NCBI RefSeq assembly: GCF_050920415.1
Contig: NZ_CP169309.1
Strand: one strand, 5' to 3'
Origin: Escherichia coli
GTDB lineage: Bacteria; Pseudomonadota; Gammaproteobacteria; Enterobacterales; Enterobacteriaceae
Length of the DNA: 64,000 nucleotides
Below, piece by piece: positions 36,103-47,722 of the stretch (positions are counted from its first letter, which is position 1; every line of letters begins with the position of its first letter). Made by a program: the position numbers and the translations under genes. The notes under the pieces were generated by a model that worked only from the letters and a program-made list of their open reading frames with translations, was not told the DNA's origin and did not search any database.

Positions 36103-36743
36103 TTATATACGTCCTTTAAGATAAGTCAGTCCTGGATGAAACCAGTAAGCAGGCACTTTTTTAAAGGGTGGATTATCAAAATCACGAAGAAGAGCCTCCC
36201 GCACAACTGCATCCTTGTCCGCACCACTGGCCAGCGCTTCAATCTCAGCAGCTACCTGCAGATATCCCATGCAACGACCAATGCGCTTCATTAGTCCCTG
36301 CTTTTTATTGTTCTTCAGGTAATCAATGGCAAATTCAATGAGCGCCTCACTGTGCTGGTGCGATGCTGGTGTTACTTTTCCATCTTCACGGATCGTGATA
36401 TTCCAGTCATCGCTTGTCACAATAAAAGATGGCCGATTCCCCCCCCATGCCTGGTCTTTATCCGGTGCAGACGCAATAAAATAACGTTTATTGCCTTCCT
36501 CTCCGGCACTTTTAACTGTAATGGAGTACTTTTCTGACAATGCGGTCGGTAAAAACTTTTCCTGCAAAATCTTCTCAAAGGTCCTGCGAGCAATTTTGAT
36601 GCAATCATCGTAAAACGCTGCTTCCTGCTCATCGCGGCGTTTTTTTCATCTTCAGAAACCATCAGCACCGACAGTTTTTTATTCAGTTCAGTGATTTCAT
36701 TTTCCAGGCAACTTATGCGCTGATTCATTTCTTCATGGTTCAT
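36103..36743 (-). pseudogene. late-operon gene split by a -1 frame change at an A7 tract
   Basis: ATG 36743 lies 4 nt after the holin stop. The frame reads MNHEEMNQRISCLENEITELNKKLSVLMVSEDEK up to the A7 run (36640-36646). The -1 frame then continues sensibly, KRRDEQEAAFYDDCIKIARRTFEKILQEKFLPTALSEKYSITVK...GRI, to 36103. The 0 frame continues as low-quality sequence to 36417. Confidence 0.6.
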
Positions 36744-36962: not shown

Positions 36963-37264
36963 ACCCCGTCTCCCGTTATCCGGAAACTGACAACAATAAA
37001 AAAGCCACCCGTTAATTACTGATGGCTCTGATGCATAAACGTCATCATTCCTGACCGTTATGATTGACAATGGTTATCATTTTTATATAAAAATACTCCC
37101 GATATGTGTTACATATCATTTCTCCACGGGGAATATCCCCACGCCAGCGTCAGACTCGTTTTCCCGTTCTCTTCTGTGCTGGCGTTTTTTTTATTATGAT
37201 GTCGGTACATTTATCTCCAGCACCAGGCTTTCAATCTCAACACCATACGCGGAATTTTTGGGCG

Positions 37265-37291
37265 TAAAAAATCCCCTCCGGTGAGGGGATT
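37265..37291 (-). terminator. intrinsic terminator closing the TerB-like module
   Basis: aatcccctc/gaggggatt 9-bp stem followed by T6 on the minus strand. Confidence 0.7.
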
Positions 37292-37523
37292 TGCTTATGT
37301 AAACATTTACACTGCTTACCTGCATGGTGCCGGGTGCCTCCCGGTGAATTCAGTATCAGCACCTGAATCCGCAATTATCCCATATACCTACTTGCTGATT
37401 GCCCCTCCGCACAGGGGGATTCACCATGCGAAATTTTTTTAACAAATGCTCAGTCTGACAGGCAACTGTCAACTGGCTGAATTGTGAGACATTTAAAATT
37501 TTCGGGGCGTAACTGATACCCGG

Positions 37524-37688
37524 TTAACTACCTGGCATGTCCTTTTTCACCAAAGGAAAAAGCACCACCACAATACCGACCACCAGCACTCCATCCGCCA
37601 GCACCGACATGATCCTGCTGGTGAAATCCACCATCACCACCAGAAACAGCAGGAGTGCCACAGCGGCCAGACGCAGTTTTACCGTCAC
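37524..37688 (-). CDS. 54-aa two-TM peptide translationally coupled to the TerB-like gene (not in ORF track)
   Basis: GTG 37688 overlaps the TerB-like stop (GTGA). Product: VTVKLRLAAVALLLFLVVMVDFTSRIMSVLADGVLVVGIVVVLFPLVKKDMPGS. ORF-track entry 37528..37815 is a different frame and reads as junk. Confidence 0.5.
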   Translation of the reverse strand: MTVKLRLAAVALLLFLVVMVDFTSRIMSVLADGVLVVGIVVVLFPLVKKDMPGS

Positions 37689-38116
37689 AGGTGGTTCTCC
37701 AGTCGCAGGCCAAGAACACCAGCAATCTCTTCCAGAACCTTACGCTCTTCCGGCTCAATTTCACCATCTGCTTCAGCAATGGCCACCGCCACATCCAGCA
37801 CATCTTCCGCTTCACGCGTATCGTGTTTCACATCTTCAATTTCACGCAACGCTGCACGACGACCAATTTTAAAATTGGTGTCAAGCTGACCTGTGATCGT
37901 GGCACTGATGGCATTAATTTCTGACGTAAACGTGGACAACGCTGGCTGGTTACGTAATACCTGTTCGATCTTCGCTTTCTCTGAAGTCTCACATTCACCA
38001 TCTGCATAGGCCACTAGGTAGGCAGCATTAATAACCGCCTGTGCCAGATCGCGTTTCTCAAACTTTTTAATTTCAGTTGCTGCTCTGCGGGTTTTCTTTT
38101 TGAAAATACCAAACAT
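37685..38116 (-). CDS. TerB-like (tellurite-resistance TerB family) protein
   Basis: 143 aa with two copies of the TerB-type acidic helix motif: AYADGECETSEKAKIEQVL and AEADGEIEPEERKVLEEIAGVLGL. Confidence 0.65.
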   Translation of the reverse strand: MFGIFKKKTRRAATEIKKFEKRDLAQAVINAAYLVAYADGECETSEKAKIEQVLRNQPALSTFTSEINAISATITGQLDTNFKIGRRAALREIEDVKHDTREAEDVLDVAVAIAEADGEIEPEERKVLEEIAGVLGLRLENHL

Positions 38117-38252
38117 CGTGACTTTTCCTTTTAGTGGGTGAGCCTGCGCCCTGCGGGGACCAGCCCACAGAGAAAGTCACACTGACCATCCCGTAAGCTC
38201 CCCCCTGAAAAGCTCTGTGGTTTTTGATATACGCCGGGCGTGGCGCGGATAC

Positions 38253-38276
38253 AAAAAAGGCCCGCAAAAGCGAGCC
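38253..38276 (-). terminator. intrinsic terminator after the tRNA cluster
   Basis: ggctcgc/gcgggcc stem with a tttt loop, followed by T6 on the minus strand. Confidence 0.65.
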
Positions 38277-38289
38277 AGGAAAATAAGTA

Positions 38290-38366
38290 TGGCGCGTTGT
38301 ACTGGATTCGAACCAGTGACCGATTGCTTAGAAGGCAATTGCTCTGTCCGACTGAGCTAACAACGC
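38290..38366 (-). tRNA. tRNA-Arg (anticodon UCU, reads AGA)
   Basis: 77 nt: GCGTTGTTAGCTCAGTCGGACAGAGCAATTGCCTTCTAAGCAATCGGTCACTGGTTCGAATCCAGTACAACGCGCCA. It folds into a clean cloverleaf with anticodon loop CTTCTAA, and it resembles argU. Confidence 0.9.
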
Positions 38367-38379
38367 ATGATGCAGATAA

Positions 38380-38460
38380 TGGACCGCCATCGAGGACTCG
38401 AACCCCGCACCAACAACCCTGTTATCGTGTCGTCTGCTCTTCCTGATGAGCTAATGGCGG
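38380..38460 (-). tRNA. tRNA-like gene with non-canonical anticodon arm (identity undetermined)
   Basis: 81 nt: CCGCCATTAGCTCATCAGGAAGAGCAGACGACACGATAACAGGGTTGTTGGTGCGGGGTTCGAGTCCTCGATGGCGGTCCA. The acceptor, D and T arms and the CCA end are good. The anticodon region is about 5 nt too long: stem ACGAC/GTTGT encloses an 11-nt loop. Confidence 0.55.
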
Positions 38461-38467
38461 TACGTTA

Positions 38468-38542
38468 TGGTGGCCCTGCTGGATTTGAACCAGCGACCTG
38501 GCGATTATGAGTCGCTCACTCTCACCACTGAGCTAAAGGGCC
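38468..38542 (-). tRNA. tRNA with CAU anticodon, ileX-like (tRNA-Ile2/Met)
   Basis: 75 nt: GGCCCTTTAGCTCAGTGGTGAGAGTGAGCGACTCATAATCGCCAGGTCGCTGGTTCAAATCCAGCAGGGCCACCA. By eye it is very close to E. coli ileX, and the acceptor stem is one base short. Confidence 0.8.
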
Positions 38543-38582
38543 GGGCGCAGGATAATAACGGTACGTAACTAATTCTGCAATA

Positions 38583-40264: not shown

Positions 40265-40711
40265 ATGAATAAAATGACTGTATTATTACTTAGCGCAACT
40301 ATCATTTCAGGTTGTACTTCTTCCGTACCATTGATAAAGAAAACTCAATCAGGAAAACCTGAGGGGGTTTATCAAAATACGACAAAAGATAAAGTCAAAG
40401 ATGCCCTTGTGAATTACTGCAATAGTAGAGGGTTGATAATTTACAACGCGGATAACAGCAGTGTTATATGTGGTAAAGAACTGGAAGGCGGGTCTGCTGT
40501 TTTTGGACAAATGTTAATCGGCAATGCCTATTCAACAACCCCGGTATCAAAAGTCAGATTTACTATCGCTCAAGTTAATAACGATACAAAAGTGTGGGCC
40601 GATATGTGGATGGAAACTCAAATGGCAATGGGGCAAGTACAACAAATGGCTATAACAGACAACGCAAGCAAAAACACTATCCAACAACGTCTTGATGAAT
40701 TAAAACCTTAA
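40265..40711 (+). CDS. lipoprotein, opposite-strand moron between Q and the putative late promoter
   Basis: 148 aa. MNKMTVLLLSATIISGCTSS carries a lipobox (ISGC). The gene is AT-rich and antisense to the surrounding operon. Confidence 0.7.
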   Translation: MNKMTVLLLSATIISGCTSSVPLIKKTQSGKPEGVYQNTTKDKVKDALVNYCNSRGLIIYNADNSSVICGKELEGGSAVFGQMLIGNAYSTTPVSKVRFTIAQVNNDTKVWADMWMETQMAMGQVQQMAITDNASKNTIQQRLDELKP

Positions 40712-46574: not shown

Positions 46575-47722
46575 TTGCGCCCCCTTACCTCGGAAGAGTT
46601 CAGCGACGAATGAATAAGACGGGCAAGAAATGCCGCATCGTTAATTCGGTCATACAGACTTACAGCCAGCGGTGATTCAGCTTTTTCCAGCATGGGATAA
46701 AGCTGCTGCAACCAGACCTGATGAATTGATGAAATGTAGGAATAGAGTACGCTGGCGTTATGTGCAACGTCGCTCGGTACAGCGGGCTTTGAAAGCTGTT
46801 TCTCCATCTGGTTAAAGGCATTGATGTATGCCTCTTTGAACTGGGCAGCACGTTTACCCGTGAAACCCATAGCAAGAAACGCAAAACCGTCGCGGGTTAT
46901 TTGATAGCAAGGTAGTTTGCGGCCTGTGCAATCGGTGTAATCACTCACCGAAAAATTGCGGGCAGTGAATGATGCGGAGCATTCAAGCGTGCGGATCTTT
47001 TTCAGTACATCGTCATGACGTTTGGAGAAGAAGTTGGCAACAGCCAGGGATGAAGTAACAGCCTGACCATCAACGATGGCAATTTCAGGTTGAGTGAGGG
47101 TTGGGATCGTAGCCATGATGGCAGCCTCTTTGGTGATTTTTAATAACTCACCACCAAGGCTTTCCACGACCTTATTGGTGGTGAGACGTACAGGGGTGGA
47201 AATACCGGTCACCAAAGAACCCGGCCCAACCGAAGTTGGCCCTGCACGCCCCACCATAATTTGGGCGTAATGCTGCTCATGACACAAAAAAACCGCAAGA
47301 GCGCGGTTGTGCGCTTTGGTGAATTCCGGGTTTCCACGCCCGGCACCCGCTTTATAAGGTGCCTGAACAGTGTAACGTCCCGGAATGGCAGAATCAATGT
47401 GCTGGTGGTCCTTCACACTCAACAAAATCACGCCTGAATTTCCACAAAGGGCTAAAGCACTCATGCGGGTAGTCTTTGCGAAGATAGATAACGCGCTGTG
47501 TTTCTGGCTCCCAACGAATAACATGAACATAAAGTCCTCTTCCGTCACGAAACCAGCGGTTAAGTTCCTGCACAACTCGCCCCCCACAGTCAGGTAAAGT
47601 TCTCTGTGGTTACTTACAGCCAGGAGATTTGGTAATCTGCATTCATGCCGTAACAACAGGTGTTCAGCGACGCTGACCACCAGCTGTTGCGACAAATGGT
47701 TATTTGCCGTTAAACTGTTCAT
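46571..47722 (-). CDS. Rha-family phage regulatory protein with an unrecognised 193-aa N-terminal extension
   Basis: The C-terminal half from MATIPTLTQPEIAIVDGQAVTSSLAVANFFSKRHDDVLKKIRTLE... (internal ATG 47143, RBS agagg) is a typical Rha N-terminus. The same frame is open upstream to ATG 47722, which overlaps the previous stop. Confidence 0.6.
   Translation of the reverse strand: MNSLTANNHLSQQLVVSVAEHLLLRHECRLPNLLAVSNHRELYLTVGGELCRNLTAGFVTEEDFMFMLFVGSQKHSALSIFAKTTRMSALALCGNSGVILLSVKDHQHIDSAIPGRYTVQAPYKAGAGRGNPEFTKAHNRALAVFLCHEQHYAQIMVGRAGPTSVGPGSLVTGISTPVRLTTNKVVESLGGELLKITKEAAIMATIPTLTQPEIAIVDGQAVTSSLAVANFFSKRHDDVLKKIRTLECSASFTARNFSVSDYTDCTGRKLPCYQITRDGFAFLAMGFTGKRAAQFKEAYINAFNQMEKQLSKPAVPSDVAHNASVLYSYISSIHQVWLQQLYPMLEKAESPLAVSLYDRINDAAFLARLIHSSLNSSEVRGRK

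Follow-up and report, generated by a model that had tools for sequence, protein, structure and literature searches.

Bacteriophage P1 carries three coupled genes, tciA, tciB and tciC, which lie between tRNA genes and 3' of dmt. The first encodes a TerB-like protein of 144 amino acids (aa), the second a protein of 54 aa whose start codon overlaps the preceding stop (TAATG) and which matches the Pfam family DUF3927 (E=1.7e-26), and the third a protein of 35 aa, again with an overlapping start (TGATG). Here we describe a related pair of genes, at 37524-38116 on the minus strand of a stretch of 64,000 nucleotides (nt) of the Escherichia coli contig NZ_CP169309.1 (hereafter, the window). We show that this pair is a TciA/TciB-type phage accessory cassette, in which a soluble TerB-fold protein is coupled to a small membrane protein of the DUF3927 family. 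Entities of this kind are already known, being annotated in RefSeq, represented by families in Pfam and PHROG and named in P1. Our additions are the boundaries of the cassette relative to stx2AB of the Stx2 phages, the assignment of its downstream terminator to the small RNA (sRNA) gene STnc100, the breadth of the coupling together with a different partner in Pseudomonas, and an argument from genomic context for a membrane role in the lytic cycle.

The likeness to P1 concerns both the proteins and their setting. In each case the gene for a TerB homologue (of the about 52% identical class) precedes that for a 54-aa DUF3927 protein, stop and start overlapping (by 1 nt in P1), and in each case the genes are phage-borne, adjoin phage tRNA genes and lie 3' of a DNA methyltransferase gene. 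P1 differs in having the third small transmembrane gene, tciC, where the window has an sRNA gene, and in location: the window pair occupies the late-operon slot of a lambdoid prophage, whereas the tci genes lie in the dmt-ban region.

Three further systems are close enough to guide interpretation. TerB of the ter operon (terZABCDEF, linked to tellurite resistance and phage inhibition; structure 2JXU) belongs to the same fold family and has the same duplicated D-G-x5-E motif as the window protein; unlike in the ter operon, the window gene stands alone with its DUF3927 partner, with no terC, terD, terE or terZ nearby. Membrane association has been reported for TerB, a transmembrane helix is combined with a TerB-like domain in DjlA and DUF533 proteins, and TerB domains also occur in the validated defence systems Bunzi, Shango and Dionysus, for which membrane surveillance has been proposed (10.1101/2022.05.11.491447, 10.1101/2025.09.30.679545, PMC11709261). 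In DjlA, in YebE/DUF533 and in BnzA of Bunzi the TerB-like domain is held at the cytoplasmic face of the inner membrane by the protein's own transmembrane helix, whereas in the window pair the membrane element is a separate, coupled polypeptide and there is neither a J-domain nor an effector domain. Finally, stx2AB in the phages phiP27 and Stx2a_1447 follows the same series of methylase, ileZ-(argN)-argO and terminator and precedes STnc100/EcOnc27 and the lysis genes; its two genes form an operon on a Q-dependent late transcript, as those of the window pair would by analogy, but the window proteins are unrelated to it and include no secreted AB5 toxin.

The pair consists of a 143-aa open reading frame (ORF) with an ATG start (38116-37685) and a 54-aa ORF with a GTG start (37688-37524). 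At the junction, cacctGTGAcgg, the start of the second (37688-37686) and the stop of the first (37687-37685) overlap as GTGA, and a GGAG motif at 37700-37697 is located within the last codons of the 143-aa gene, 8 nt 5' of the GTG, so that the translational-coupling junction covers 37685-37700. The original prediction, made from the sequence alone, had placed both ORFs at these positions and described the overlap, and both points hold on inspection of the sequence. It had also regarded the small ORF as hidden and absent from annotation, which is incorrect. In the RefSeq record NZ_CP169399.1 (E. coli MFDS1022581), which is 100% identical to the window across 37200-38400 and differs by 2 bases from it across 37469-64000, the NCBI annotation pipeline (PGAP) lists the two products as WP_001355126.1, “TerB family”, and WP_000216624.1, “DUF3927 family protein”.

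A TerB-type identity, foreseen for the 143-aa protein, was borne out by a Pfam run, in which residues 26-138 match TerB (PF05099) with E=2.1e-16 and 60.7 bits against a cutoff of 24.4. The full length of the protein matches PHROG 632, “tellurite resistance” (E=2.2e-69), and a profile of 22 homologues matches the Klebsiella TerB structure, PDB 2JXU, over residues 12-137 (E=1.5e-15). Weak direct matches were also obtained to DjlA (E=6e-7) and DUF533 (E=1.7e-5), while weak matches to zf-HC2 and anti-sigma-E were under cutoff and were set aside. Two acidic ADGExxxxE motifs are present, ADGECETSE at residues 38-46 and ADGEIEPEE at 116-124, and form the duplicated D-G-x5-E pattern; E46, D117, G118 and E124 are invariant among the 22 homologues, and D39 and G40 are conserved in at least 90% of them. 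The AlphaFold2 (AF2) model of the domain is all-helical, with a predicted local distance difference test score (pLDDT) of 84-91, and its best Foldseek match in the PDB, 2H5N, is weak (E=9e-3, TM-score 0.57-0.61). Nine of the first 22 residues are lysine or arginine, and this basic N-terminus is conserved as MFGxFKKK..RR. No transmembrane segment was found in the 143-aa protein, in which the maximum hydropathy over 19 residues is 0.88, and the protein is predicted to be cytoplasmic and all-helical.

The 54-aa protein matches Pfam DUF3927 (PF13064) with E=3.2e-16 and 59.5 bits against a cutoff of 25, and the “TciB-like” family PHROG 1470 with E=1.4e-24; the exact peptide is present on approximately 1000 public contigs. 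A partial “DUF3927” match in the O104:H4 strain (H113) proved to be a mislabelled pseudogene fragment beside insertion sequence elements and was discarded. Pairwise ratios of nonsynonymous to synonymous divergence (dN/dS) for the small ORF are 0.2-0.5 at dS of 0.4-1.6, the changes falling mostly in the C-terminal tail, a pattern which indicates purifying selection. Short overlapping ORFs are common, and this one begins with GTG, and it could be asked whether it is a chance reading frame beside a TerB gene that alone is functional. The strength of the Pfam match, the dN/dS below 1, the well-spaced Shine-Dalgarno motif and the distant homologues, which at only 25-35% identity still retain the motif (V/I)DFTSxxxSVxxD and the coupled position, make that explanation hardly credible; the earlier reading of the small ORF as a gene stands, and this gene is co-conserved with TerB-like genes in distant phages and prophages.

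Its membrane topology is less settled. Two hydrophobic stretches of 13-14 residues each, at residues 8-20 and 34-47 with DFTSRIMSVLADG between them, suggest two short hydrophobic helices, and to this extent the peptide is as originally described. A two-transmembrane hairpin was not established: the AF2 model, built from a 26-sequence alignment, is one continuous helix spanning residues 2-49 (pLDDT 90.7). Across the same alignment D21, F22, S28, D32 and P45 are invariant, and the best-conserved part of the family is a stripe on the central amphipathic helix formed by D21, R25, S28 and D32, which lie within 100 degrees of one another.

To see how widely the two genes travel together, genomes were scanned with the TerB alignment, one per species, yielding 52 loci, 51 of them full-length, in Enterobacterales, Pseudomonas, Aeromonadaceae, Oceanisphaera, Photobacterium, Halomonas and metagenome-assembled genomes (MAGs) of Desulfovibrio/Bilophila. 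At nearly all of the 51 a small membrane ORF begins within a few nucleotides of the TerB stop; the exceptions include loci L027 and L041, and L043 and L044, which lie at contig ends. The junctions are GTGA, ATGA or TAATG or a gap of 0-4 nt, the forms other than GTGA occurring in distant loci, and among close loci the GTGA form is retained in 71 of 81. A scan of viral contigs with the same alignment recovered only relatives at least 95% identical, and these served for junction statistics while being uninformative on diversity. The coupling is also found from the other side, since look-ups seeded with three diverse DUF3927 proteins (32-63% identity) had a TerB gene directly upstream in 3/3 cases.

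In Pseudomonas the coupled partner of the TerB-like gene is, at most loci, a protein of another kind, an unrelated single-transmembrane protein of 65-68 aa that has no Pfam family. This partner, seen at loci L017, L020-L035, L037-L041 and L046-L050 in Pseudomonas and its relatives and usually with an xTGA start/stop overlap, has one N-terminal transmembrane helix and a conserved C-x-YYG-x-QT(D/E)R...VGCMV...W-PR-E-R motif. The constant feature of these loci is therefore a TerB protein with a small membrane protein of any family, and because of this we propose that the partner supplies membrane attachment, or a signal, in trans.

Within E. coli, megablast detected the pair in 1109 of the 5426 complete genomes, with as many as 8 places in a single genome, and both genes were annotated alike in all 22 sampled records (22/22) with a match spanning the two. 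Two database proteins, P0125 (197 aa) and P0187 (170 aa), have TerB and DUF3927 fused in a single frame; they may be artefacts of a 1-nt frameshift at the GTGA junction, or else real fusions. These data bear on the suggestion that the pair is a toxin-antidote or abortive-infection module, in which the peptide would depolarise the membrane and the TerB-like protein would restrain or trigger it. The peptide is indeed small and very hydrophobic, an upstream regulator coupled to a downstream effector is the arrangement of type II toxin-antitoxin operons, and Dionysus couples a TerB protein with a pore-forming effector. Yet neither PADLOC nor toxin-antitoxin families are matched (the 54-aa peptide has zero matches in PADLOC-DB v2), conservation of the peptide peaks in a specific polar stripe (D21, S28, D32), not in generic hydrophobicity, the Pseudomonas partner is unrelated and has an extracytoplasmic Cys-containing domain, and the number of places occupied per genome and the recorded fused ORF P0125 would be unusual for a toxin. 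On balance we consider a toxin pair improbable.

Copies of the pair in phages were located by a distant blastn search, and their neighbourhoods are diverse. Pantoea septica and P. stewartii have the pair between the Q antiterminator and lysozyme genes, and P. entomophila has it just after Q; in a Symbiopectobacterium MAG it follows a CII/CP76 regulator gene, and S24 repressor genes are close to it in Pseudomonas, Desulfovibrio and Yersinia. P2/186-like prophages of Serratia carry it in the early operon (Int, C, Cox, Fil, TerB, DUF3927, RepB), lytic Machinavirus jumbo phages within a tRNA cluster, and P1 between dmt and ban. The pair is phage-borne in every context characterised, with no fixed link to lysis genes or to late transcription.

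Phage tRNA genes repeatedly adjoin the pair, namely in Stx-like lambdoids, P1, Machinavirus jumbo phages and the Bilophila/Desulfovibrio MAG contigs. The tRNA-adjacent loci are the window (38290-38543), P1 (L054, 1142-3012), ChrisDB (L058, 947-3574), L059, L003, L015 and L039; such adjacency was not seen at P2/186-like or Pseudomonas loci.

The same survey of contexts addresses the idea of a lysis-timing module, raised in the original prediction; such a module would act, like an antiholin or a holin accessory, on the adjacent class II holin. In the window and in the Pantoea prophages the pair does lie between Q and the holin or lysozyme genes, on the late transcript. This linkage is however a property of the lambdoid cargo slot and not of the pair, which elsewhere sits at dmt-ban in P1, between fil and repB in Serratia, beside S24 repressors in Yersinia and Pseudomonas and in the tRNA cluster of jumbo phages, and the same slot in Stx2 phages holds a toxin. 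A function in lysis timing is thus disfavoured, and we regard it as very unlikely.

The slot itself is well defined by comparison with Stx2 phages. Along the late strand of the window the order is Q, DNA methylase, tRNA-Ile (CAU), a tRNA-like element, tRNA-Arg (UCU), the TerB/DUF3927 pair, holin, lysozyme and Rz, which confirms the proposed Stx-phage late-region architecture with its three tRNA elements, cargo and holin-endolysin-Rz genes; the series of Q, a reverse-strand gene, a small ORF, DNA methylase, ileZ, an argN-like element and argO is that of the Stx2 phages too. The tRNA module (38290-38543, minus strand), delimited by ARAGORN, PGAP and alignment to ileZ-argN-argO of Stx2 phages, contains tRNA-Ile2 (CAU) at 38469-38543 and tRNA-Arg (UCU), argO, at 38290-38366, both called by ARAGORN, and between them, at about 38380-38460, a degenerate argN-like element that PGAP lists as “tRNA-OTHER” and for which ARAGORN made no call. 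The anticodon-arm region of this degenerate argN resembles the phiP27 version, unlike the intact argN of Stx2a_1447.

Directly 3' of argO, an intrinsic terminator at 38259-38276 (minus strand) was identified by a terminator scan and by folding, its hairpin and T-tract having a folding energy of -13.8 kcal/mol (z=-3.67 against shuffled controls). This terminator, GGCTCGCTTTTGCGGGCC-TTTTTT, and the tRNAs are common to the window, phiP27 and Stx2a_1447 nearly base for base. The sequences diverge about 25-40 nt past the terminator, with homology ending at about 38225-38240, and stxA starts some 90 nt after argO in both phages. On the other side, homology to Stx2a_1447 restarts about 30-45 nt after the DUF3927 stop or the stx2B stop and spans a 200-nt element. 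That element, at 37260-37458 on the minus strand, is the sRNA gene STnc100 (the EcOnc27/sRNA103 region of Stx2 phages), which matches Rfam RF02076 with 148.7 bits against a gathering threshold of 47, over model positions 1-206 of 206. It lies between the DUF3927 stop and holin, and its 3' end is the hairpin with T-tract at 37291-37265 (-15.9 kcal/mol, z=-3.66); another hairpin, at 37427-37400, has no significant fold (z=-0.39). No third gene of the tciC kind follows position 37524, STnc100 being found there instead.

Because the alignment with Stx2 phages holds on both flanks, the cassette of about 730 bp (about 38240-37495), between the argO terminator and STnc100, can be read from sequence comparison as a precise allelic replacement of stx2AB. 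The earlier suggestion that the pair occupies the stx position is thereby made exact: it stands where phiP27 and Stx2a_1447 carry stx2AB. The bracketing terminators, by which the unit was said to be insulated, are real hairpins, but they are not specific to it. Both are shared backbone, since they flank stx2AB as well and the downstream one is STnc100's own, and what had been taken as a downstream terminator of the unit should be annotated as an sRNA. As a direct alternative to stx2AB in prophages of the type found in Shiga toxin-producing E. coli, the pair also offers a clean marker of cargo exchange in the late region of Stx phages.

Previous work places STnc100 75 nt 3' of stx2B (PMC12370729) and has it overlapping the Hfq-binding sRNA EcOnc27/sRNA103 (PMC12711010); in strain EDL933 11 copies are annotated, RNA-seq reads support most of them and a Northern blot has confirmed one (PMC5331693), and according to a 2026 preprint TerB (PF05099) is one of the conserved neighbours of related Pas sRNAs. 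In the window STnc100 could have its own promoter or arise by 3'-end processing of the cargo mRNA.

The cassette begins with a specific leader (38117-38240, minus strand), in which a Shine-Dalgarno sequence, AAGGA at 38130-38126, is located 9 nt 5' of the ATG. A moron would bring its own promoter and terminator; a promoter scan by crude consensus search detected no sigma-70-type promoter for the cassette on the minus strand, and both nearby terminators, belonging to the backbone or the sRNA, are shared with Stx2 phages. Since no promoter was detected and the upstream terminator also stands before stx2A, we infer by analogy with stx2 that expression of the pair would depend mainly on readthrough by Q-modified RNA polymerase from pR', during lytic development.

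Expression in the lysogen is, by comparison, what a role in lysogenic conversion would call for. On that account the pair would be a stress factor conferring ter-type phenotypes (tellurite, colicin, metal or oxidative stress), as the names “tellurite resistance” and “tci” imply. The TerB homology of the 143-aa protein is genuine, the slot is a classic one for morons and is allelic to virulence cargo, and the Klebsiella ter operon is reported to raise stress tolerance (PMC9933665). The prophage, however, carries no other ter genes: terC, terD, terE, terZ or other members were found neither within it nor in its flanks, and a phage paper cites the view that terB without other TelR genes is inactive (PMC8421299). 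The lack of a detected promoter of its own, and the presence of the pair in strictly lytic jumbo phages and in repressed early operons of P2-like prophages, also speak against such a factor, which we judge to be improbable. The label “tellurite resistance” for the TerB-like gene is unsupported and should not guide annotation.

We favour the explanation that the cassette is a TciA/TciB-type, inner-membrane-associated two-protein module of the lytic cycle that serves in exclusion, defence or counter-defence, and estimate its probability at roughly 0.5. The pair is kept by strictly lytic phages and is tied neither to lysis genes nor to late transcription, and this points to a role during lytic growth. 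With a Shine-Dalgarno motif inside the 3' end of the TerB gene and the GTGA overlap, TciB is translated by coupling, and the two proteins would be made together. TciB would then hold TciA at the inner membrane, or be its partner there, reproducing in trans the layout of transmembrane segment plus TerB domain that is seen in cis in DjlA, YebE/DUF533 and BnzA. The putative complex may act on the inner membrane or monitor it to the benefit of the phage, and it would most plausibly exclude superinfecting phages or protect against host defences directed at the membrane; tellurite resistance and holin control are less plausible. The basic N-terminus of TciA and the amphipathic stripe of DUF3927 may be relevant to the mechanism.

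Several observations weigh against this explanation. Our literature search found no experimentally described function for the pair, as the original prediction had supposed; the P1 tci genes owe their names to homology alone, tciA, tciB and tciC were non-essential in a CRISPR interference screen (PMC10695390), and nearly half of one P1 subgroup is without the tci operon (PMC9603915). Neither protein matches PADLOC defence models beyond a weak PDC-S48 candidate (E=0.002) for the TerB-like protein, in the PADLOC-DB v2 hidden Markov models, a library that includes Bunzi and Shango but not Dionysus. For DUF3927 AF2 models one long helix instead of a hairpin, and in the single-chain AF2 model of the fusion P0125 the peptide part, for which the alignment is only 2 sequences deep, is predicted with a pLDDT of just 50-80, so that the model is uninformative on docking of the peptide to TerB. 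A crude consensus scan may miss a weak or non-sigma-70 promoter active in lysogens. Lastly, phage 434 carries DUF3927 without TerB. In that phage (L055, 1663-2895) the gene is located downstream of a Q82-like Q; the gene for a 247-aa polytopic membrane protein precedes it, and those for a 62-aa product annotated as “putative membrane protein” and for a SASA esterase come next.

A bolder version of the favoured reading, which we offer tentatively, is that TciA/TciB represents a widespread inner-membrane device that phages use in lytic growth. It would either exclude superinfecting phages or use the phage TerB protein, at the membrane, as a decoy or competitor that blunts host defences relying on membrane surveillance by TerB domains (Bunzi, Shango, Dionysus, the ter island). 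The small partner would on this proposal be an exchangeable adaptor, DUF3927 in most lineages and the unrelated 67-aa single-transmembrane protein in Pseudomonas, and linkage to tRNA clusters would mark a counter-defence island. TerB domains are now emerging in validated anti-phage systems of unclear mechanism, and a minimal phage version made of two proteins is a tractable model for the action of such domains at the membrane.

The prophage that carries the cassette extends over about 9100-56400 of the window, between prfC and yjjG. In NZ_CP169399.1 frameshifts affect the genes for the portal, the Rz-like lysis protein and an N6-adenine methyltransferase, as well as an ORF located between holin and lysozyme; this ORF is split in the window too (36103-36743), and the prophage may thus be a defective one. 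At least one indel separates the left part of the window from NZ_CP169399.1.

Other features of the prophage may be noted. At 47174-47362 on the minus strand, near Rha, YmfL and YmfK genes, an Rfam match to C4 antisense RNA (83.6 bits) adjoins one to isrK (67 bits), which suggests an antirepressor-control region of the P1/P7/P22 type in the early part of the lambdoid prophage. In the gap of about 300 nt between STnc100 and the class II holin (36963-37259) there is a sub-threshold Esr41-like Rfam match on the plus strand (37103-37193; 34 bits against a gathering threshold of 102), and a recent preprint describes PasA/PasC sRNAs directly adjoining holin in related prophages. Between Q and the methylase a reverse-oriented gene of 148 aa (40265-40711, plus strand) runs antisense to the presumed late transcript; the N-terminus of its product resembles a lipoprotein signal (LLSATIISGC), and Stx2a_1447 has two reverse-strand genes at the same place.

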